From: a virus
Taxonomy: Duplodnaviria > Caudoviricetes
Virus record (IMG/VR): IMGVR_UViG_2724679654_000001
Coordinates: 15,221 to 79,220 of that record
Length of the DNA: 64,000 nt
Reading direction: 5' to 3' (one strand)
A program made the translations under genes and the position numbers. This document shows, in pieces, positions 14,706 through 57,096 of this stretch (its first letter is position 1; each line of letters begins with the position of its first letter). A model generated the notes under the pieces. That model was not told where the DNA came from, did no database searches, and saw nothing but the letters and a program-made list of their open reading frames with translations.

Positions 14706-15368
14706 ATGCCACTGACCGAAGCCATCCAAAAAGCACAAGCTCAATCACCCTGGCATGTTGGAAATGCTGTTCTATATGAACTATGCAGCTCTCATCCAAA
14801 ACATTCCCAAGAGCCTGACGTCATTGCTAAAGTTTGGCTGGTTGGTCGAGCATATGCCGCAGCAATTGAACGTAGAAAAAACAAGTCAGACGAAAACGCT
14901 AATTTTTACGTCACCAAAGTCGCGCCTGACATCGCTAAGTCAGCCATCGATGCATGGATTGAAGAGGCCAAGCAATACGACCGGCCATGCCAGGAATCGT
15001 GGTCAACGTTGCTTCACGTTCATCACGAAACCACGCAACTGTTTAGCTCAATAAGTGGACTTGAGAAGCGTTCGCTGGCATCGAAGTATCTACACTTCCA
15101 TGTGCCTAAGCTTTTTTACATCTACGACACCAGAGCTAGTCAAGCCATCAGCATGCTTAGCGGCGTATTGAAGCGGGCTGGAAAGTCGAGCGCCAAAGTT
15201 GATAACGAGTATCGTAAGTTCGCCGAAAAATGCTTGTCTCTGCATGAGCATGTCGAGAGTCGATATGGTGTCAGCCTCAACCCGAGAGAAATTGACAACT
15301 TACTGCTTTATGTTCACGAAAAAAACCTAATCATTCGTTCAACGGGACTGCCTACGGCAGCTCGTTAG
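14706..15368 (+). CDS. Cassette 3: hypothetical, possibly a helix-hairpin-helix glycosylase-like fold
   Basis: AKVWLVGRAYAAAIERR, RSLASKYLHFHVPKLFYIYDTRA; ATG 14706 just after the core site (track start 14553). Confidence 0.65.
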   Translation: MPLTEAIQKAQAQSPWHVGNAVLYELCSSHPKHSQEPDVIAKVWLVGRAYAAAIERRKNKSDENANFYVTKVAPDIAKSAIDAWIEEAKQYDRPCQESWSTLLHVHHETTQLFSSISGLEKRSLASKYLHFHVPKLFYIYDTRASQAISMLSGVLKRAGKSSAKVDNEYRKFAEKCLSLHEHVESRYGVSLNPREIDNLLLYVHEKNLIIRSTGLPTAAR

Positions 15369-45704: not shown

Positions 45705-48700
45705 ATGATCTCATTTGCAGAAAAAAGAAAAATACAAAGCACAATATTAGAACAAAACAAGATTCTTGCCAGCAATCCATCGTTTATCAATAAACGGCAG
45801 GCACAAAAGACCAAAGCAGAGGCTATGATTAAGCTTGGTTTGGTTGGTACCGGCCAGCAGGCACCCATTGCCGAAACAGAGCAGCCAGACGAAGATAAAC
45901 CAATTGAGCGCAAATCTACTGCACGCCTGTACGAATTCGACCCAAACCGCAAGCCAGCGCAGCGCAGGAAAGACAATACCGCAGCAATGGCATTGCTTGA
46001 CCGCATTGATTCCGGTGAAATTGATGCAAATAGCCTGACCGATGAGCAGAAAGCCACTTTAGCAAAATATTCCGGTACCGGTGGAGCATTGATCGGGGCT
46101 GATGGCAAAAAGGGCAGTGCTTACGAATATTACACACCCAAACCGATAGCTGAAGGTATCTGGGATCTGATGAGCGAATTGGGATTCAATGGCGGCAAAG
46201 TTCTTGATCCATCCGCTGGCGTGGGTGTTTTTGGAGCCGTGGCACCAGCAAATGCCGCGATTGATGCTATTGAGCTGAATGAAACATCCGGGCGTATTAA
46301 TGGATTGGTAAATGATGGCGCTGGCTACTCGACCACTGTTTCAGCGTTCGAGAAGGTTGCGGCCAATACCCCCGAGGAAATTTACGATGCAATAATCACC
46401 AATGTCCCTTTCGGTGGCGTTGCTGATCGTGGCGGCAATCAGTTATTAGATAACCGGTACCAGAAAGAACCGCTGCAAAATTATTTCATATTGCGTTCAC
46501 TGGAAAAGTTAAAACCGGGTGGATTGGCTGTATTTATTACTCCGCCTCGTTGCGTGTCGGGGAAAGGCGGCAAAGAAGAGGAGCTCCGCGTTAAATCCAG
46601 CTTCATGGCTGAATTCCTGGGGGCGTATCGCTTACCCAATTCAGTATTCGGGACCGCAAGCGCTGACACGATGGCGGACGTTATCGCCTTCCGCAAATAT
46701 AGCCGTGAAACACTGGATAAAATCTCAGAACTGAGAGAGCAATCACCACAAAGCCTGATTGATGCCAATGTTCAATGGCAGGAATTTATTGAAGGCCATT
46801 ATTTTGTTGGTGAAGGCAAGCGCTTTATCCTGGGTGAATTTGTACCCAAAGATCCCAACAAATTCAGAGACGTTGACCGCGTGATTAATCCGGCCAATGT
46901 TGCAGAAATAGGCCGCATGCTTAAACGATTCCCCGGTTCCAGAATTAACTGGGATCTGCTGGGAGCCATCGAAACATCGCCAATTATCTATCGTGATGGT
47001 GACACCATTACCCAATCCGGGCAAACCCTTCAAATGCAGGGTGGCCGTTGGGTAGCCATGGCGCGTACGGAAGAAAGCGTGGATATGGCTGAACTTGCTG
47101 GGAATATGGCAACGCCCTACAAGGCTTTTGAGAACAAAGTAACTTGGGCTGGTGCAATCAAGTTCTTTGACTACATGACTGAAACCTCTCAGGCGCTTGA
47201 TATTCCTGCATGGGCGCGCGGAGCAATTAATGAGATCAAGCGGTTATCTGATGAGGGTGATCGCGGCAAATACTGGAATGCGGGTGTGGTTGGCATGTCT
47301 GTTGCGCAAGTATTGGAAGAGCGGCTTGGTGAAGAGGTGGGGGTCAAGTATGTTGACGAGTACCCCGCATTGTCGGACGCAATGCAGCGTGTTTCAGCGA
47401 TTGCAAAAGGCCGCCCGTCATCCATTGGCGGCAAGGTTAAAGATGGCTTGCTGGCGATTGGCACTCATTACCAGAAGAAAACCGGATTTTCTGCGGTATG
47501 GCGTGGTGATGTGCAGCAAGACGTTACCACAATGGAAATCACGGCTGATTCCAGCTTTGAAGGATTGCGCTACAAAACCAGATCGGCATGGGTAACGCTC
47601 GATGATGCCAAGGGTATCTATGGTGATGACTTTGACCCGGCTGGAGATCAAGCCTGGTGCGTTTCGCCTGATGGTAAATCAGTCACGCGCGCGGATGATT
47701 ACTATGTGGGCAACTATGCTGAATTCTTAAAGCGTGTCGATGCTGAGATTGCGGCGGCTAACGATGACAAGGTGCGCGATAAGTTGCTGCGGCAAAAATT
47801 GGATGCAGATAGCCGGGTAGATCGGATTGATGTATCAAAGCTGACCTTTAATCTGTTTACTCCTTATGTCACGCATGAAGAAAAGGCTGAATTCCTGCGG
47901 AGATTTGTTCATCCTGCAGCGGTGGTTGTCTTTGATGAAAAAACCGGTGAAAAGCGTGTTGATATCGATATCCCTGGCAGCAAGTTAACTGACCGTGAAA
48001 AGCTGATTAATCGTATAGGCGATTACCTGAAGAACGGCACCATTACGCTCGGTGGCGCGAAACTTGACATGGAAAAGGCCAAAGCCCTTCAAGAATTGCG
48101 CAGAATGATCAATACTGCCAATGAGCAATTCAACGGCTGGGTGCGCGGCAATAGCGTGATTATGCGCAGACTTGAGGGAATCTCTTCTGATCCTACAAAA
48201 TTGCGCTTCCGTCAAGTTGAAGATAGTTCGCCCATGAAAATACAGGGAATGAGCGATTTGATAACCCCGCATGGATACCAGTTTGCTGAGATCCGCAGAC
48301 AAAGCCGGGAATTTGGCGGTATTAATGGGTTTGGGGTCGGGCTTGGGAAAACCTTAACTTCTTTGGCTGCCGTGCAATATGCGCAAAGCATAGGTGTTAA
48401 GAAGAAAACCTTTATTGTGGTACCCAATTCAGTGCTGTCGAATTGGCGCAAAGAGGCCGTGCGCGCGTACACGAATCATGATGATTTGCTGTTTGTTGGT
48501 TTGCGGGTTAACAAAGGCAAGGCATTGGTTAATTCGACCAACTTTGATGCTGATCTGACCGCAGTCATGGAGAATCGCCACAGCAAGATTTTTATGACAA
48601 TGGAAGCATTCGAGCGTATCCGACTGCGAGATGAAACTATTGCTGAATATGAGAAATTCTTGCGTAAAGTAGATGCCAGTTTTGCTGAAAGCGAGGATAA

Positions 48701-51700
48701 AAAAGAGGACGAGCGGGCGAAGAGTAAACAAGCCGGTTTGGTCTCTATTTTGTCTAAAAAGACCGGCAGCGCGCCGTATCTTGAAGACTTAGGCGTTGAC
48801 AGTATCGTGATAGATGAGGCGCATTGTTTCCCGGCTGGCACTATGGTTGATGGCGTTCCTATCGAAGAAATAAAAGTGGGCGATACAGTCAGATCCTTTA
48901 ACCATGACACTGAGAGTATCGAATACAAAGTTGTTACTGATGTGATGCGTAGGGTGCCTGCTGGTCTTGTTAAGGTCAACTTGAAGAATGGCAAAAATAT
49001 CGTTTGCACTCATGACCATGAGTTTTTTATTCCTGGAACTGGTTATGTTGCAGCAGAGTTTTTGAATAGTGGATACAATGTGCTAATCAATTATTCAAAA
49101 ATGGATTTGCCAGATGAAGTGTTCAACATGCAACAAGGAGTTTCAACCGAGTTATTACCAGATAAGGAAATCAGAGGAATTTCCAGAAAGCCCAATGTAT
49201 TGCAGCAAACCTTGCGTAAAACAGAAGCGATTTTTGATACCGAAACAAAACCTACCTTGCAGTCATTGCAAAACAGAGTTTTATCCATCAATGGAACAGC
49301 GAAGATCGCACAAGAAGAATGCTTCGATATTCTGCTCTCAGAAATGCTTTGCGGACAGCAAGCGCAAAAAGGTTCCAATACTCAAGAATTGCGAGGAGTG
49401 CGGGGAACTATTCGAGCTGAATCATGTGCAGAATTGGAAATCTGCAACAGGGAAGGCGGACAAATTTTATTGCGGGAAGTCCTGCGCGATGACATGGAGA
49501 AGCAAGCACTCGATCAATTTAAAGGCGGCGCAGAAGAGCGAGGAAAGGAATGCGAAACGCAGGGGGGCGCTAAAGAGGCACAACTGGTTACAGACACCAG
49601 AAGCCGTGGAGAAGAACAGACTGACTCGAATATCCAGAGGAGTGGGGAAGGGAGTGCCAATAAAGAACCGTGGCGGGAACGGAAAGGGGGCTACGATTCC
49701 GCAAGAAATGCTGGCGAATTCTCTGAATTGGACAATGGAGTACATCTTAAAAACCAATGTACCGAAAGGGAACGGGATACCGACACATTACAAACTGGAC
49801 TTGGCGAATCCTCACTTGATGATAGCAATAGAGGTGGATGGGAGATCCCACAGCAGCTTGACGGTCAAGGAGAAAGATGCCAAGAAAACAAACTTTCTGG
49901 AATCATTGGGGTGGACAGTGTTGAGATTCTCGAATCAGGAAGTGATGGAAGATTTGGAGGGGTGTGTCCAGACGGTTATGTCTACGACATTACAGTTGAA
50001 GGAAACCACAATTTCTTTGCAGAGGGAATCTTAGTACATAATTGTTACAAAAACGCCGCCCAGACAATCGATTTCAAAAGCGCGAAATTCCTCTCTTTAT
50101 CACCTGCTTCGCAACGTGGCTTGGATGCTCAAGCAAAAGCCTGGTTTATTCGTGGCAGATCGCAACTTGGGGATGGCGTGTTATTGTTAACCGCCACAGC
50201 AATATCTAATAGCCCCCTAGAGGTTTTTTCCATGCTGTCTCTGGCAGTGGGCCATGAGCGCGTGAATGATATGTGCCTTGGTATCAAGGGTGCGGATAAC
50301 TTTATGGAAGTATTTGTCCAGAAAGATAATCAAGATGATGTAACGATTGACGGCGTTGCACGCACAACTGATGTGTTTGTTGGATTGAATAACGTAAGCA
50401 TACTGAGAAAATCCATTGGTGAGGTTGCTACCATCAAATCGGCTGAAGATGTCGGTGAGCAAATCATTGTTCCTGACCGTGAAGAGAAGGCATCAGCCGT
50501 GACATTGACAGGCGATATTGTTGATCGCCTGGTCATATACAAAAGAGCGTTCAGATTTGCAATCGATACTCTGGCTGGCAAAGAACCTAATCGTGGCGGC
50601 AAAGAGGCGTTTGATGCGGTATCCGCTCATTTTGGTGAGGAAATGGATCTAATTGGTCATCCCTTCAACCTGATTAATAAAATGACCTTGCTGATCGCAG
50701 ACCCAGAACTCGATCAAAGAGCTACCTTCTACAGCTTTATTGATGCGCAGGCAGACAAGGCTAAGGATGCCGTGAACCAGTTCAACGCCAAAAATTTCAC
50801 TGAGGAGCGGCCAAGATTTACGCCAATGTCATCAGAATCATCCGTTGTTAGCCGAAAAACAACCAAAGACGAATCTGGCAATGAAGTCACGATAATGAAA
50901 ATTAAGGTGGTGGCCAGTATTATTGACGGCAACCGAATTGCCATTGATACCATGACCCCGGAAACCCAAAGCGCATTCGAGGATATTGCGAAAAAAATTG
51001 GCTTGGATCTGGATGTGTCGGTACCGCCAAAACTTGCCGCAATGCTTGAAAACTTCCAGCATGAGCAGGCCACGCCGCGCGGCATTATGGATGATGGCAG
51101 CAAGTCGCCGGTCGTTAAGCAGATTATTTTCTGTGACATTCTGCCACTGCATAACAAGATCAAACGCTTATTAAACAAGCGCGCCGGGATACCAGCGGGT
51201 GCAATTGCGATAATAACCGGCAAGACCAACAACAAGCCCGATGAAATATTGGCCGTTCAAGATGGTTTCAACGCATTTGGTGAAGATAATAAATACCGGG
51301 TTGTGATCGCCAATGAAAAGGCTGAAGTGGGTATCAATCTGCAAAGGGGAACCCAGGCAATACACCATTTAACCATTGGCTGGACACCCGATAGTTTGGA
51401 GCAACGCAATGGCCGTGGCGTTCGTCAAGGCAATAAAACTGAGCGCGTAAACTCATATTATTACGATGCTGATGGTACTTTCGACACCAGCAAGCGCTCC
51501 ATGGTTAATAAAAAGGCTGATTGGATAGGTCAGGTAATGGATGTTGGCGGTAGCGACAACGTTGCAGTTAGCGGAGGATTATCCAAAGAACAGATGGAAG
51601 CGCTCATTGAAGTTGTAGGCGATGCCGATGCAATGAAGCGCATGCAGGAAACAATCGCTGCCAAAGAAGCTGAGACCAGGGCTGCGACAAACCGCGATAA

Positions 51701-53321
51701 GCAAATGATCAACATTGACACCATCCGCAAGCAGAATGCTTTCCTGCGTTCCAATCCAAGCCCGGTTAATTTCATAATCGACAAGATTCTTGGCTTGTGG
51801 AATCTTGAGAAGCAGATGTTTATGCTAAACGACAGAATAAACAACCCCAAGGCAACAGAATCTGCAGTAGCGCGAAACAAAGGATTGCTTTCCGATGTTA
51901 ATTCCCGCATATCTAGTGTGCGTAACAGTATTGAAAAATCCGCAATCATTTCCAAAAGCGCAGGGTATAACTCAGTTACCAGGCAGAACGAGCAGGAGGC
52001 TACAACCCTTGATGACGTGTTTAAAGCGATTAGATCAAATAGAAAGCAAAAGGAAGATGATATTGTTGAGATGTTACGCGGAAAAGTTTGGCCATCATTC
52101 AAAGTATCTGCCATAGAGGGCGGTCCAATAGTAAACGATTGGCAATCCGAAGTGGATATGGCCAACTCAATGATTGAAGAATCCAAAAACAACTTTATCC
52201 GCCAGGCATCGGAGCATGGCAGTTATCCGGCTGAAGTTGCCAAGATCGTGGCCGAAGGTGGCAGCGATGTGCATGAAGGTAAGCCAATAGTAACCGGCAT
52301 GTTTCTGCGATTCAATGATGGCGTGATAGGTATAGTTGATGTCCCCGGCCAAACCGTTGTGACAGCCAACAAATCCGCTCATTTCCTGAGCTACAGATTA
52401 GCTGCTTCCATCAAGGAGGCTGCGGAATTAATTTACCCAGGATCTTCAGCTTACGATTCCTGTTTAGATGATGCTGCAGAATTAGAGGATAAGGCGAATG
52501 CTGCAGGTGAAGTGCAAAATGGATTCAATAAGCTGGTACCGGTGATCGCGCAGCGCCGCAAGACCGAGGTGCTGGCAGAATACAGCCACTATAACTACGT
52601 TCTTCCTCAACCCTATTTCCCTTTTGTCGTCTTGAGCGGTAAAACGGCAGTAGCAAAGCATATTATGGCTACGCAGAGCGCCATCATCAAATTCATTCGC
52701 GGCAGTTACTTTGCTGTGCCGAGTAGCGTTGCGGTCACAAAAAAGCCTGATGGGCTAAGTAACTATGACGCGCTGCGAGAATATGCAATAGCTCATCATC
52801 TAAAACTGGTAATCGCTGATTTTAGTGAATCGGAATACTGGCTAGGTCAGCAGATCACAAAAACCATCACGGTCGATATGTTTAAGGTTGCCATTACCGG
52901 CTCTACCGAAGAGGAAATCCGTAATCAGGCCACAAACTTTATGTTAAATTCAGTTACGTGGTTTGATTTTGAAGGGATAGATCCTATTGGTAACCACCTG
53001 CTTCCTTATAATCTGCTAAAAGTTCTGAATGCGGCCATCAAAGCGGTGGCACCAGCTCCGGTAGCAGCCACAATCAGTAGTACGGATGCGCCATCAAGCA
53101 TTGTGGGCATCAAGGTATCATCCTCTTCATGGGCTGATATCAATGTCTGGAAAGAGAACATAAAAGCTGCGGCTGTGGCGGCCGGTGATGGGAAGTACAA
53201 GTTTGATGGCAAGACCAAGATATGGAATGTTTTGCAACCAACATGGGATCATCTTATTGCAAACTATCCAGGCGCAGCAGATAAGGTTGAGTTTGTGAGT
53301 GGCACCTTGTCGTATCTATAA
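45705..53321 (+). CDS. darB: DarB-like N6-methyltransferase plus SNF2-type helicase, intein-containing
   Basis: MTase YEYYTP, LDPSAGVG, TNVPFG; helicase GVGLGKT, VIDEAH, LTATAISNS, GINLQ, QRNGRGVRQGN. Confidence 0.9.
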   Translation: MISFAEKRKIQSTILEQNKILASNPSFINKRQAQKTKAEAMIKLGLVGTGQQAPIAETEQPDEDKPIERKSTARLYEFDPNRKPAQRRKDNTAAMALLDRIDSGEIDANSLTDEQKATLAKYSGTGGALIGADGKKGSAYEYYTPKPIAEGIWDLMSELGFNGGKVLDPSAGVGVFGAVAPANAAIDAIELNETSGRINGLVNDGAGYSTTVSAFEKVAANTPEEIYDAIITNVPFGGVADRGGNQLLDNRYQKEPLQNYFILRSLEKLKPGGLAVFITPPRCVSGKGGKEEELRVKSSFMAEFLGAYRLPNSVFGTASADTMADVIAFRKYSRETLDKISELREQSPQSLIDANVQWQEFIEGHYFVGEGKRFILGEFVPKDPNKFRDVDRVINPANVAEIGRMLKRFPGSRINWDLLGAIETSPIIYRDGDTITQSGQTLQMQGGRWVAMARTEESVDMAELAGNMATPYKAFENKVTWAGAIKFFDYMTETSQALDIPAWARGAINEIKRLSDEGDRGKYWNAGVVGMSVAQVLEERLGEEVGVKYVDEYPALSDAMQRVSAIAKGRPSSIGGKVKDGLLAIGTHYQKKTGFSAVWRGDVQQDVTTMEITADSSFEGLRYKTRSAWVTLDDAKGIYGDDFDPAGDQAWCVSPDGKSVTRADDYYVGNYAEFLKRVDAEIAAANDDKVRDKLLRQKLDADSRVDRIDVSKLTFNLFTPYVTHEEKAEFLRRFVHPAAVVVFDEKTGEKRVDIDIPGSKLTDREKLINRIGDYLKNGTITLGGAKLDMEKAKALQELRRMINTANEQFNGWVRGNSVIMRRLEGISSDPTKLRFRQVEDSSPMKIQGMSDLITPHGYQFAEIRRQSREFGGINGFGVGLGKTLTSLAAVQYAQSIGVKKKTFIVVPNSVLSNWRKEAVRAYTNHDDLLFVGLRVNKGKALVNSTNFDADLTAVMENRHSKIFMTMEAFERIRLRDETIAEYEKFLRKVDASFAESEDKKEDERAKSKQAGLVSILSKKTGSAPYLEDLGVDSIVIDEAHCFPAGTMVDGVPIEEIKVGDTVRSFNHDTESIEYKVVTDVMRRVPAGLVKVNLKNGKNIVCTHDHEFFIPGTGYVAAEFLNSGYNVLINYSKMDLPDEVFNMQQGVSTELLPDKEIRGISRKPNVLQQTLRKTEAIFDTETKPTLQSLQNRVLSINGTAKIAQEECFDILLSEMLCGQQAQKGSNTQELRGVRGTIRAESCAELEICNREGGQILLREVLRDDMEKQALDQFKGGAEERGKECETQGGAKEAQLVTDTRSRGEEQTDSNIQRSGEGSANKEPWRERKGGYDSARNAGEFSELDNGVHLKNQCTERERDTDTLQTGLGESSLDDSNRGGWEIPQQLDGQGERCQENKLSGIIGVDSVEILESGSDGRFGGVCPDGYVYDITVEGNHNFFAEGILVHNCYKNAAQTIDFKSAKFLSLSPASQRGLDAQAKAWFIRGRSQLGDGVLLLTATAISNSPLEVFSMLSLAVGHERVNDMCLGIKGADNFMEVFVQKDNQDDVTIDGVARTTDVFVGLNNVSILRKSIGEVATIKSAEDVGEQIIVPDREEKASAVTLTGDIVDRLVIYKRAFRFAIDTLAGKEPNRGGKEAFDAVSAHFGEEMDLIGHPFNLINKMTLLIADPELDQRATFYSFIDAQADKAKDAVNQFNAKNFTEERPRFTPMSSESSVVSRKTTKDESGNEVTIMKIKVVASIIDGNRIAIDTMTPETQSAFEDIAKKIGLDLDVSVPPKLAAMLENFQHEQATPRGIMDDGSKSPVVKQIIFCDILPLHNKIKRLLNKRAGIPAGAIAIITGKTNNKPDEILAVQDGFNAFGEDNKYRVVIANEKAEVGINLQRGTQAIHHLTIGWTPDSLEQRNGRGVRQGNKTERVNSYYYDADGTFDTSKRSMVNKKADWIGQVMDVGGSDNVAVSGGLSKEQMEALIEVVGDADAMKRMQETIAAKEAETRAATNRDKQMINIDTIRKQNAFLRSNPSPVNFIIDKILGLWNLEKQMFMLNDRINNPKATESAVARNKGLLSDVNSRISSVRNSIEKSAIISKSAGYNSVTRQNEQEATTLDDVFKAIRSNRKQKEDDIVEMLRGKVWPSFKVSAIEGGPIVNDWQSEVDMANSMIEESKNNFIRQASEHGSYPAEVAKIVAEGGSDVHEGKPIVTGMFLRFNDGVIGIVDVPGQTVVTANKSAHFLSYRLAASIKEAAELIYPGSSAYDSCLDDAAELEDKANAAGEVQNGFNKLVPVIAQRRKTEVLAEYSHYNYVLPQPYFPFVVLSGKTAVAKHIMATQSAIIKFIRGSYFAVPSSVAVTKKPDGLSNYDALREYAIAHHLKLVIADFSESEYWLGQQITKTITVDMFKVAITGSTEEEIRNQATNFMLNSVTWFDFEGIDPIGNHLLPYNLLKVLNAAIKAVAPAPVAATISSTDAPSSIVGIKVSSSSWADINVWKENIKAAAVAAGDGKYKFDGKTKIWNVLQPTWDHLIANYPGAADKVEFVSGTLSYL
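48825..50042 (+). mobile_element. Intein (406 aa) in DarB
   Basis: DEAH|CFPAGTMV...CTHDHEF (block B)...VYDITVEGNHNFFAEGILVHN|CYKN; removal restores DEAHCYKN. Confidence 0.95.
49114..50034 (+). CDS. Zinc-finger + DUF559/Vsr-like endonuclease nested in the +1 frame of the intein
   Basis: Three CxxC...(Y/F)CxxxC repeats; YKLDLA...IAIEVDGRSH...KDAKKTNFLESLGWTVLRFSN. Confidence 0.85.
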   Translation: MKCSTCNKEFQPSYYQIRKSEEFPESPMYCSKPCVKQKRFLIPKQNLPCSHCKTEFYPSMEQRRSHKKNASIFCSQKCFADSKRKKVPILKNCEECGELFELNHVQNWKSATGKADKFYCGKSCAMTWRSKHSINLKAAQKSEERNAKRRGALKRHNWLQTPEAVEKNRLTRISRGVGKGVPIKNRGGNGKGATIPQEMLANSLNWTMEYILKTNVPKGNGIPTHYKLDLANPHLMIAIEVDGRSHSSLTVKEKDAKKTNFLESLGWTVLRFSNQEVMEDLEGCVQTVMSTTLQLKETTISLQRES

Positions 53322-53335
53322 AAAGGAATTGAATT

Positions 53336-53752
53336 ATGGCATTTACAGAATATTTATTTGATCCTGAGAAGATCAAGGCACAGGTCGAGAGCCGCACGCA
53401 GAGCCTGCGCGCGAATAAGGGATTCTCAGATTTGCTGGGATTTGGACTCAAGGTTATCAATGATCGTCTCAGTAATGATCGTAAGCGGTACCGAGACTAC
53501 GGACCATACTGGCCTGCATTAAAGGAAATCCTAAATGCGAACGGCTACAATTTTGGCGACCAATCAGATCCGATAGTTAAAGCTGTGTATCACGGCGATT
53601 CGGATGTTGAAACGCTGGTTATGGCCGATGAGTTCAGAACCGAATACTTAGCAACTACCATTGTGTATACAAACCGATTCATGCTGGATGGCAAGACCGG
53701 TGAATTCTGGGTGTTGTTTGATTCTGATATGGAAGATCCCGCAGCAAAATAG
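53336..53752 (+). CDS. ulx: Ulx-like protein
   Basis: Follows darB; YRDYGPYWPALKEIL. Confidence 0.6.
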   Translation: MAFTEYLFDPEKIKAQVESRTQSLRANKGFSDLLGFGLKVINDRLSNDRKRYRDYGPYWPALKEILNANGYNFGDQSDPIVKAVYHGDSDVETLVMADEFRTEYLATTIVYTNRFMLDGKTGEFWVLFDSDMEDPAAK

Positions 53753-55398: not shown

Positions 55399-57096
55399 AT
55401 GAATATTAATGCCAGCATTATTGATCAACGCGTGACAGGGATTATAGAAGATCATCCCGAGTGGCTACCTAGTGGCACTGATATTCATAAAAAAAAATCG
55501 ACAGCTTTTGTTCTTTTGTGCATGGCTACTTGCCTTGATATATCCATGGATGAAGCGTCAGAAATGATCACTGATGGTGGTAATGATGCGGGTGTTGACG
55601 GATTGCATATTAGTGATGTTGAAGATGGGGAATTTTTGGTTACTATTTTTCAAGGAAAATACAAACAAGACCTAAACGGAGTTGCCAAGTTTCCAGAGAA
55701 AGGGGTTCAAAAATCTGTTGATACTTTGAGAGTGCTATTTGATCCATATCGCCAAGTTACCCTAAACGACGAAATTAGACCGAAGATTGAAGAAATTCGC
55801 TCTTTAATACGTGATGCATATATTCCAAATGTACGAGTGATTTTATGTAATAACGGCATAAAATGGACAGATGAGGGACAAGCTTGGATAGATAATGCAA
55901 AAAATAACTTTGGTGACAAAGTCGATTTTATTCACTTTAATCACGATTCGATAGTGAATATTCTTCAAAGCAGCAAAAAGGTGAACGATACTTTGTCCCT
56001 TAGTGGTAAAGCAATAGTAGAGGACATGAATTATATGAGAGTCCTAGTTGGCCGTGTTTCTGTTCATGAAATACATCGGCTCTTTACTGCTAATGGTGAC
56101 AAGCTATTAGAACGCAATATCCGCCGCTATCTTGGCCTACATAACAATCGAGTTAACTTAGCAATTCACGAGACCCTTTGCGATTCTAATAAATCAGATA
56201 AATTTTATTTTTACAATAATGGCGTTACTGTTGTTTGTGACAAGTTTGACTATAACGCTTTTCAAAATTTTGATTATAAAGTTCAACTCACAAACATGCA
56301 GATTATTAATGGCGGACAAACTTGTAAAACAATTCAAGAAACTTTAGATGGTGCTCTCCTAGGTATGGTTGGCGAATCTGCTTATGTAATGATCCGAATT
56401 TACCAACTAGCTGAAACGCAGAAGGATTTTGTTCAGGATATTACTTATGCCACAAACAGTCAAAATCCTGTTGATCTTCGCGATTTACGATCTAATGATG
56501 ATATTCAAAAGCAGCTAGAACTTGGTTTGTCCGAGCTTGGTTATACCTATAAACGACAAAGAGAAGAGGGGAGCAGTGGCTCTAATGTCATAACCAGTTC
56601 AATTACTGCAGAAGCTGTTCTTGCAATCTGGAGACAGAGACCACACCAAGCAAAATTTCGTCGTAAAGAACTTTTTGGAAAATTGTATGAGGATATTTTT
56701 CACAATTTGAATGCTGCTCAGGCATTAATAGCTGTTTTAATCTTTAGGGCGGTAGAGAATGAAAGAAAACGCCCAACAATACCAAATTCTCCAGATTTTA
56801 TTCCATATGCATCTCATTACATTTCTATGTTAATGGGTCGTGTCCTTTTGAAAGATTGTGAAATTGAACTTGAAACAGTTTCTCATCAGAATATCAAAAT
56901 GATTATGGAGCAGTTCGAAAATAAACAACTTCATTATTACGGTACTTCAATAGCTTCTGTAACCGAAGCTTTAAACTTTTTTTATGGTCAAAGGGAAATC
57001 TCATTACAACAACTTTCTGCAACTTTTAGACGTGGAGATCTTCTTGACATTTTGCTAAGTGGTGGTGATCCCGTCAAAGCATTTTTAGCTGATTAA
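55399..57096 (+). CDS. AIPR family (abortive infection phage resistance) protein
   Basis: DGGNDAGVDG, ERNIRRYLG, FYFYNNGVT, QIINGGQT, ATNSQN. Confidence 0.9.
   Translation: MNINASIIDQRVTGIIEDHPEWLPSGTDIHKKKSTAFVLLCMATCLDISMDEASEMITDGGNDAGVDGLHISDVEDGEFLVTIFQGKYKQDLNGVAKFPEKGVQKSVDTLRVLFDPYRQVTLNDEIRPKIEEIRSLIRDAYIPNVRVILCNNGIKWTDEGQAWIDNAKNNFGDKVDFIHFNHDSIVNILQSSKKVNDTLSLSGKAIVEDMNYMRVLVGRVSVHEIHRLFTANGDKLLERNIRRYLGLHNNRVNLAIHETLCDSNKSDKFYFYNNGVTVVCDKFDYNAFQNFDYKVQLTNMQIINGGQTCKTIQETLDGALLGMVGESAYVMIRIYQLAETQKDFVQDITYATNSQNPVDLRDLRSNDDIQKQLELGLSELGYTYKRQREEGSSGSNVITSSITAEAVLAIWRQRPHQAKFRRKELFGKLYEDIFHNLNAAQALIAVLIFRAVENERKRPTIPNSPDFIPYASHYISMLMGRVLLKDCEIELETVSHQNIKMIMEQFENKQLHYYGTSIASVTEALNFFYGQREISLQQLSATFRRGDLLDILLSGGDPVKAFLAD

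Follow-up and report, generated by a model that had tools for sequence, protein, structure and literature searches.

A candidate zinc-finger homing nuclease gene nested in the +1 frame of a helicase intein in a DarB-like phage gene

How does an intein spread if its own reading frame holds no nuclease? The textbook intein is a splicing domain with an endonuclease domain fused to it in frame. The question is raised by an intein in a DarB-like gene of a Caudoviricetes provirus, found in a stretch of 64,000 nucleotides (the window; positions 15,221 to 79,220 of IMG/VR record IMGVR_UViG_2724679654_000001, a metagenome-derived provirus record of 79,220 bases). In the frame of the host gene, here called frame 0, the interior of this intein matches no Pfam domain, and one base later the same DNA encodes a protein of 306 residues with zinc fingers and a nuclease fold. 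We consider it probable that the element is a class-1 intein carrying a separately started homing-nuclease gene in its +1 frame, that its frame-0 interior serves as a tether, and that it homes into DExH-box alleles. The features of frame 0 are the following, in window coordinates.

45705-53321, + strand: DarB-like precursor open reading frame (ORF), 2538 aa; N6-methylase and SNF2/ResIII helicase, split by the intein
48813-48824, + strand: DEAH (helicase motif II), end of the N-extein; intein-less relatives have DEAH or DEGH and then (I/V/G/A/M/L)(F/Y/L)KN
48825-50042, + strand: class-1 intein in frame 0, 406 codons, from Cys1 to His405-Asn406
48825-49109, + strand: Hint N-lobe (blocks A and B, TxxH at residues 62-65); AlphaFold2 (AF2) predicted local distance difference test score (pLDDT) 95-98 for residues 1-90
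49110-49889, + strand: frame-0 linker, intein residues 96-355; stop-free, pLDDT mostly below 50, no Pfam domain
49896-50042, + strand: Hint C-lobe (blocks F and G, terminal HN); pLDDT 77-97 for residues 361-406
50043-50045, + strand: codon of Cys+1, the first C-extein residue; I, V, G, A, M or L in intein-less relatives

Frame 0 has the sequence motifs and the predicted fold of a class-1 intein. After VIDEAH it reads CFPAGT...CTHDH...VYDITVEGNHNFFAEGILVHN, and the C-extein resumes with CYKN. The class-1 motifs are all present (C1, T62-x-x-H65, H405-N406 within VHN406, and Cys+1 at 50043), and C1, H65 and N406 are invariant among 45 homologous inteins, with which the fold was also predicted. 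Pfam Intein_splicing (PF14890) is matched with an E-value of 4e-15 (56.4 bits, cutoff 35.8), at the two ends of the intein only. Using the frame-0 model, Foldseek returned 26 PDB matches at E<=1e-3, every one of Hint fold; they comprise mini-inteins, bacterial intein-like (BIL) domains and hedgehog autoprocessing domains, with mini-inteins and BIL domains at the top. A nuclease domain was found in the frame-0 intein neither by Pfam nor by Foldseek on the AF2 model, and residues 96-355 are predicted to be disordered and to have no fold of their own. A sequence-only reading of the window had placed a canonical intein directly after the DEAH of DarB and described its interior as free of LAGLIDADG or HNH motifs; the coordinates and motifs all hold, and Pfam, AF2 and Foldseek agree on a Hint domain confined to the two ends. 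Frame 0 runs unbroken through the intein, and halves on separate ORFs, the mark of a split intein or fractured gene, were seen only in one relative (L076). Taken alone, the Hint N-lobe resembles inteins in large terminases of Brucella phages (40 records in the search listing) and in ribonucleotide reductases of Campylobacter phages (10 records in the same kind of listing).

The +1 frame of the same DNA contains a second gene-like unit, with these features.

49103-49105 and 49114-49116, + strand: weak Shine-Dalgarno (SD)-like GGA, 8 nt before the ATG, and the ATG of the +1 ORF
49114-50034, + strand: +1 ORF, putative homing endonuclease, 306 aa plus stop; zinc fingers and Vsr-like/EDxHD nuclease
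49120-49215, + strand: Cys4 module 1, residues 3-34; low pLDDT
49258-49347, + strand: Cys4 module 2, residues 49-78; zf-FCS/MYM/TRASH-like, weak Pfam TRASH_ZMYM4 match
49390-49485, + strand: Cys4 module 3, residues 93-124; pLDDT above 90
49669-49683, + strand: RGGNG motif, residues 186-190, ahead of the nuclease core; G188, N189 and G190 invariant
49786-49983, + strand: nuclease core, residues 225-290; DUF559, with E240, D242, H246, D255 and K258

Its product is predicted to be a DNA-binding Cys4 array joined to a Vsr-like/EDxHD nuclease. The three modules follow the pattern CxxC...(F/Y)C(S/G)xxC, and Pfam DUF559 (PF04480) is matched at residues 225-290 with an E-value of 3.1e-13 (50 bits, cutoff 20.6). 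An alignment of 46 sequences served both for the AF2 model, which reached a mean pLDDT of 85.4, and for the assessment of residue conservation. Module 1 is modelled with low pLDDT because few homologues carry it. In module 3, C93, C96 and C120 are invariant and C124 is kept in at least 90% of the sequences; in the core this holds without exception for D242 and H246, and for E240, D255 and K258 in at least 90% of the sequences. E240, D242, H246 and D255 may correspond to the catalytic E, D, H and D of EDxHD nucleases. Foldseek matched the nuclease core to 3hrl and to 3r3p, the catalytic domain of I-Bth0305I (probability 1.0, template modelling score on the target 0.68-0.72), and more weakly to Vsr itself (1vsr). 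The family profile likewise finds 3hrl (E 1.5e-11), as well as the MYM-type finger 2das (E 0.005), and the nuclease family counts 3258 cluster representatives at E<=1e-3. Pfam, profile and fold comparisons thus concur with the earlier description of 49114-50034 as 306 residues with three Cys4 repeats and a DUF559/Vsr-like domain.

Could two frames stay open over such a length by chance? When the +1 protein and its codon usage were held and synonymous codons permuted 2000 times, the window overlap acquired a mean of 11.75 frame-0 stops and no shuffle was stop-free; the actual sequence has 0 in frame 0 and 20 in the third frame. The window and eight homologous loci gave the same picture: frame-0 stops were absent in 9 of 9, against shuffle means of 4.9-16.7, and the fraction of stop-free shuffles (2000 per locus) was 0 in eight loci and 0.0015 in the other, with 10-30 stops in the third frame. 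Frame 0 is kept open through the choice of synonymous codons, and the openness of both frames for more than 300 codons, remarked on from the sequence alone, exceeds chance. A small example is the invariant +1 tripeptide H-Y-K, whose bases give Leu-Gln in frame 0 without exception (45 of 45 aligned inteins); its Tyr codon presumably has to be TAC, because TAT would produce TAA in frame 0. Since +1 codons begin at the second base of frame-0 codons, that base is largely set by the +1 protein, and a test for synonymous choice towards a hydrophilic frame-0 tether would have no power.

The overlap extends into the splicing domain itself. The +1 ORF stops 8 nt before the end of the intein, and about 46 codons (bases 49896-50034) specify structured protein in both frames according to the two AF2 models. 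The same bases give GWTVLRFSNQEVME in the +1 frame, a conserved part of the nuclease, and GVDSVEILESGSDG in frame 0, a strand of the Hint C-lobe. Over the C-lobe bases the +1 model forms a strand (residues 268-273) and helices (274-302). The overlap with intein block F noted earlier holds and takes in the roughly 46 codons common to nuclease and C-lobe. In several unrelated metagenome runs, short contigs agree with the window over 49909-49986 alone (summed depth 53 in the activated-sludge run, X6) and continue into unlike sequence. This segment encodes the GWxVLRFSN motif of the nuclease in one frame and Hint C-lobe in the other, and it is likely that no other DNA of the family is better conserved. 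An environmental relative of about 94% identity (a contig of the groundwater run, X2) carries a one-base insertion after 49886 and a one-base deletion at 49890; these compensating changes restore both reading frames within 4 nt.

Selection distinguishes the two frames in the way predicted for a genuine +1 gene. Nine pairs with nuclease identities of 60-84% were compared by the ratio of nonsynonymous to synonymous substitution rates (dN/dS), and in 9 of 9 the overlap gave 0.10-0.25 for the +1 frame and 0.92-1.69 for frame 0, values that are biased in overlapping frames and are read here only as a contrast between them. The frame-0 flanks gave 0.09-0.30 in the pairs with computable dS. Between the window and its nearest DNA relative (L011), the +1 ratio is 0.13 over 315 codons. 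Differences within pairs concentrate at the third position of +1 codons, and four pairs are gapless over the whole ORF, which excludes alignment bias for those four. Judged by these comparisons, purifying selection within the overlap acts on the +1 frame only; the frame-by-frame comparison of homologous inteins that the sequence-only reading had proposed finds the +1 frame constrained and frame 0 near or above 1.

How widespread is this layout? A search of phage records for DNA nearly identical to 48600-50300 found no match, so that protein-level searches were needed. With the +1 protein as query, tblastn recovered 40 phage records (37 Vibrio, 2 Corynebacterium, 1 Pseudomonas), and all four isolate phages inspected, Vibrio CP-T1, Vibrio 1.088.O, Corynebacterium phi673 and Pseudomonas MR14, have the layout: each is annotated with a single long 'helicase' coding sequence and contains a stop-free +1 stretch of 215-263 codons within it. 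In IMG/VR, 4 of 4 loci from a first scan were nested in +1, and a profile scan yielded at least 335 relatives. Among the best 80 of these, nine of which are near-identical duplicates, 78 were scored as '+1 inside longer ORF' by script and 77 proved dual-coded on inspection; the remaining three are L081, which the script had counted as nested, L076 and L087. Prokaryote contigs, searched with one genome per species, added 19 long matches from metagenome-assembled genomes labelled Methylococcaceae, Anaerolineae, Planctomycetes and others, and 19 of 19 are nested in +1 inside ORFs with the ending ...V(H/S)N followed by C or S. Four shorter matches are nested likewise (one in Roseicella), a further one without an intein motif is doubtful (L161), and the other 49 short matches are ordinary, non-nested DUF559 genes. 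A strict regular expression for the 'shadow of block F' at the nuclease tail was tried as a proxy for nestedness on the 237 proteins with the core motif among 251 database proteins; it matched 97, missed 73 and found 67 too short, and was dropped, many of the misses carrying looser tails by eye.

The +1 ORF is intact in these homologues (4/4 isolates, 77/80 IMG/VR loci, 19/19 long genome matches), although the sequence-only reading had allowed that it might be found broken. The same counts bear on the suspicion, natural for a metagenome-derived provirus record, that assembly or sequencing indels have shifted the nuclease of a canonical in-frame intein. An identical frame relation in four independently sequenced isolates and about 100 independent contigs, a frame 0 that is stop-free against strong expectation, and a nuclease with its own ATG leave such an artefact next to no credibility. 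Opinion is evenly balanced on a broader claim, namely that the +1 layout is a stable and ancient design of a very large, undescribed family of DExH-box helicase inteins, and not a transient intermediate of invasion, decay or re-framing. Between phages of Proteobacteria, Actinobacteria, Chloroflexi, Planctomycetes and other groups the nuclease is down to about 30% identity, yet the +1 relation is kept in 77/80 and 19/19 of the loci above, and the 46 or so doubly read codons specify conserved structure in either frame.

Several relatives arrange the same parts differently. In P0244, a UvrD-like helicase of 823 aa, a DUF559 domain without zinc fingers lies in frame inside a canonical intein. In three others (L081:1835-3028, P0160 and P0227) the N-extein and Hint N-lobe run in frame into the nuclease, and the C-lobe is found in the -1 frame. 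A fractured gene occurs at L076:1333-3822, where an ORF of N-extein and N-intein stops, a +1 nuclease ORF follows, and a separate ORF encodes C-intein and C-extein. Finally, at L087:1513-3373 a free-standing nuclease with one zinc-finger module overlaps, at its 3' end, the start of an intein-less superfamily 2 (SF2) helicase gene; in this arrangement the helicase gene next door may be the target of a free-standing homing endonuclease.

If the nuclease is a gene of its own, it should have a start of its own. In 73 non-redundant loci a start codon, ATG in 70 and GTG in 3, precedes the first CxxC, mostly by 2-12 codons, and the median distance from it back to a +1-frame stop is 7 codons; three further loci (L053, L081 and L086) did not fit the start rule. 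SD-like motifs at -3 to -18 are enriched: 39/73 loci have one of at least 4 nt, against a background of 23.6% (binomial p 4e-8), and 22/73 have one of at least 5 nt, against 7.2% (p 4e-9), the background being taken over every position of these host ORFs. The conserved start and this enrichment point to independent internal initiation of translation, which would make the nuclease a separate protein as had been proposed. The window has a weak SD of its own, the GGA, and the TACAAT noticed upstream of the ATG is indeed present at 49074-49079. A scan for sigma-70-like promoters, which leaves phage-specific promoters outside its reach, found 0 sites in 48700-50200 against a shuffle mean of 2.0. 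TACAAT was considered as a promoter element and is unsupported in that role, the scan having found no -35 partner for it. The part of the earlier proposal that foresaw a separate promoter and a release from late DarB expression is likewise unsupported, and an uncoupling of nuclease timing from DarB expression is at this point an inference.

A programmed +1 frameshift from frame 0 offers another route to the same protein. It would fuse the N-extein and Hint N-lobe to the nuclease or, with two shifts, rebuild a canonical intein, and the in-frame N-terminal fusions of L081, P0160 and P0227 as well as the weak SD of the window fit such a route. Against it stand the ATG found immediately ahead of the first zinc-finger module (70 of 73 loci), the enrichment of SD-like motifs, and the upstream +1 stop, so near that a shift site would hardly fit in. 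Moreover, frame 0 is stop-free for 200-320 codons in every nested locus, which a frameshift would not need. Judged from start codons, SD-like motifs and stop positions, a frameshift origin is very unlikely, and internal initiation is the reading we retain.

Does the element behave as a mobile one? Empty alleles of the host gene, which the sequence-only reading had suggested looking for, are readily found. The intein-less Xanthomonas phage Rb1 reads VIDEGH directly followed by GYKN, and 21 of 21 closest DarB-like loci in IMG/VR are intein-less, with DE(A/G)H directly followed by xxKN. One of them (L164), whose C-extein is 93% identical to that of the window, continues from DEAH into IFKN. In the X6 contig, 48824 is joined to 50055 with 12 diverged letters between them, again giving IFKN, so the intein-less junction is exactly 48824 to 50043. 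The X2 contig, about 94% identical, retains intein and nuclease; the evidence from environmental runs consists of this long contig and the X6 joint. A sporadic presence among close relatives is as expected for a homing element. Most inteins of the family sit at DE^CH(H) of DECH-box helicases, and those of the window, L011, L032, L063 and many genome loci two residues later, at DEAH^(C/S)(F/Y)KN of DarB/SNF2-like proteins. The two registers within motif II suggest that the element has switched exteins between related sites. Compared with the intein-less L164:3001-3840, window positions 50043-50880 show 73-92% nucleotide identity over the first 840 nt or so past the insertion site, and from +840 to +1500 identity is 93-100%; upstream there is no trend. 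This dip gives at most a hint of a co-conversion tract and may equally reflect uneven constraint.

These data also bear on whether the window copy is alive. It might be an inactive relic, not yet broken, within an otherwise real family: its SD is weak, the sigma-70 scan found no promoter match, the element lies in a provirus, and the homing-cycle model expects homing endonuclease genes (HEGs) to decay after fixation, as two preprints describe it (10.1101/2025.01.02.630785; 10.64898/2026.09.14.751524). Yet the invariant residues of the family are all intact in this copy, the dN/dS against L011 is 0.13 over 315 codons, the relative of about 94% identity from another sample retains the element, and the 21 closest intein-less alleles would all be available as targets. 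We regard the relic as unlikely.

The host gene invites a further thought. The 2538-aa ORF matches Eco57I-type methylase, SNF2/ResIII and Helicase_C domains; its closest named relative is the intein-less protein of phage Rb1 (52% identity), and P1 DarB is matched at 28% identity over 259 aa (E 2e-14). Two genes lie downstream of it.

53336-53752: Ulx-like anti-restriction gene, directly 3' of the DarB-like gene (phrog_1629, E 1.5e-25)
55399-57096: Abi-alpha-like gene, further downstream of the DarB-like gene (phrog_1841, E 2.9e-72)

With the DarB-like gene these look like a P1-style anti-restriction or defence neighbourhood, and in P1, too, darB and ulx are neighbours. The window protein shares with P1 DarB the order of methylase and then SF2 helicase, and differs in being only a distant homologue. 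Because of its domain content, its distant similarity to P1 DarB and the adjoining Ulx-like gene, the name DarB-like is fair, and the protein may belong with P1 DarB, a large virion-associated methylase-helicase that gives protection from type I restriction. One could suppose, given an anti-restriction gene with Ulx-like and Abi-like neighbours, that the nuclease has been recruited for a non-homing function of the phage, such as attack on host DNA or anti-defence together with DarB, and that the intein is a mere carrier. The unit of nuclease and intein, however, occurs at the DExH box of many unrelated helicases in unrelated phages and bacteria, and it is absent from the closest DarB-like genes; this is the pattern of a selfish element and not of a DarB accessory. 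Its fold relative I-Bth0305I is, moreover, a demonstrated homing endonuclease (PMC3239194). Such a recruitment is extremely unlikely.

Under the reading we prefer, that of a splicing intein with a nested homing gene, the parts would work together as follows. The whole intein would be translated in frame 0 with DarB, and the Hint splicing domain would consist of the N-lobe (about 90 aa) and the C-lobe (about 50 aa) alone. The roughly 260 residues between the lobes would form an unstructured tether whose sole constraint is to stay stop-free. The same DNA one base later would act as a free-standing gene with its own ATG (49114-50034), whose nuclease most likely cuts intein-less DExH-box alleles. 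Repair of a cut allele would copy intein and nuclease gene into it, which is homing, and protein splicing would keep the host helicase functional. A number of points weigh against this account. Splicing would have to proceed across a disordered insert of about 260 residues, and internal initiation, site-specific cleavage and homing by the +1 nuclease are predictions. The dN/dS ratios carry the bias of overlapping frames, the IMG/VR count extends to the best 80 of at least 335 relatives, duplicates among them, and in-frame, N-fused, fractured and free-standing layouts also occur in the family. To these are added the weak SD of the window, the empty promoter scan and the ambiguous identity dip downstream of the insertion site.

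If the account is right, a whole family of helicase inteins, with about 100 relatives inspected, keeps its nuclease as a separate overlapping gene, recognizable by stop avoidance, frame-specific selection and an own start codon. The family would offer a tractable test case for the translation of nested phage genes and a source of zinc-finger/EDxHD nucleases predicted to target the DExH-box region. Annotation is affected too, since the output of gene callers is one long 'helicase', in which neither the intein nor the nuclease is recognized. Within one family, in-frame, out-of-frame, N-fused, fractured and free-standing forms provide a series that links mini-inteins, full inteins and fractured genes, and these forms are states postulated by the models of Dassa and of Gosselin and colleagues. 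Should the layout prove to be a stable design, selection would favour a separate, independently dosed nuclease over an intein domain, and the family would be the best natural system in which to study long-term overlap of genes on the same strand and the step between mini-intein, full intein and fractured gene.

Known systems offer several precedents. An out-of-frame nuclease gene inside an intein goes back to Gorbalenya 1998, as cited by later papers. More recently, Gosselin, Arsenault & Gogarten described actinophage inteins with an antisense LAGLIDADG, an antisense VSR-like and a frame-3 EndoVII-like HEG (bioRxiv 10.1101/2025.01.02.630785), and Phillips, DeSimone & Gogarten found a +2 LAGLIDADG in dnaX with the same dN/dS contrast (bioRxiv 10.64898/2026.09.14.751524). 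The hosts of these non-canonical cases are actinophage polymerase, capsid, terminase and ThyX genes and cyanobacterial dnaX, and the proposed origin is the invasion of a mini-intein by a free-standing HEG. They share with the window a contiguous intein that is open in the extein frame, an HEG in another frame, a sporadic distribution, and a dN/dS that is low in the HEG frame and raised in the intein frame. According to the 2025 survey, VSR-like HEGs had previously been associated with inteins only in split inteins, to which it added the antisense ones. Here, in contrast, a zinc-finger and VSR-like/EDxHD gene lies on the sense strand in +1, at the DExH box of SF2 helicases and DarB, and at least 100 loci from many phyla share a kind of layout that both preprints term rare.

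The closest relation of parts is seen in the fractured genes of Dassa et al. (2009, PMC2677866), mainly from phages, in which a Vsr-like free-standing HEG lies between the halves of a split intein and its 3' end overlaps the C-intein coding region by 6-69 bp in 15 loci. The nuclease superfamily, the strand and the position between N and C intein parts are the same, and L076 has the identical form. The fractured genes keep their HEG in a gap with a short non-coding leader, whereas the window and 77/80 relatives have a contiguous intein, since frame 0 has no stop; they would splice in cis, and the whole HEG overlaps the intein frame. For the nuclease, the best point of reference is I-Bth0305I, a demonstrated homing endonuclease and the prototype of the EDxHD group (Taylor et al. 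2011, PMC3239194; PDB 3r3p). Both proteins combine an N-terminal DNA-binding region with a C-terminal nuclease built on a Vsr-like core. At about 20% identity they differ in that the gene of I-Bth0305I lies in a group I intron and its DNA-binding motifs are of NUMOD type, and the window protein has Cys4 (zf-FCS/MYM-like) fingers and is encoded in a shifted frame inside an intein. ShiLan-type insertions, in which out-of-frame HNH nucleases are hidden in phage methylases (Arsenault et al. 2025, PMC11855218), likewise place a nuclease ORF in an alternative frame of an insertion that is open in the host frame, and they raise the same question about translation; their nuclease is of HNH type and they have no splicing domain, whereas the carrier in the window is a Hint intein.

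The sequence-only reading had left open whether this architecture was already reported. The principle of inteins with out-of-frame HEGs is known and the class published; a search of the literature, covering main texts and not supplements, turned up no VSR-like gene on the sense strand in +1 within a contiguous intein of a helicase or DarB, and Supplemental Table 1 of the 2025 preprint could list one. Set beside these systems, what appears to be new is the family itself, the type and orientation of its nuclease, the DExH-box target, and the size that the family has reached.

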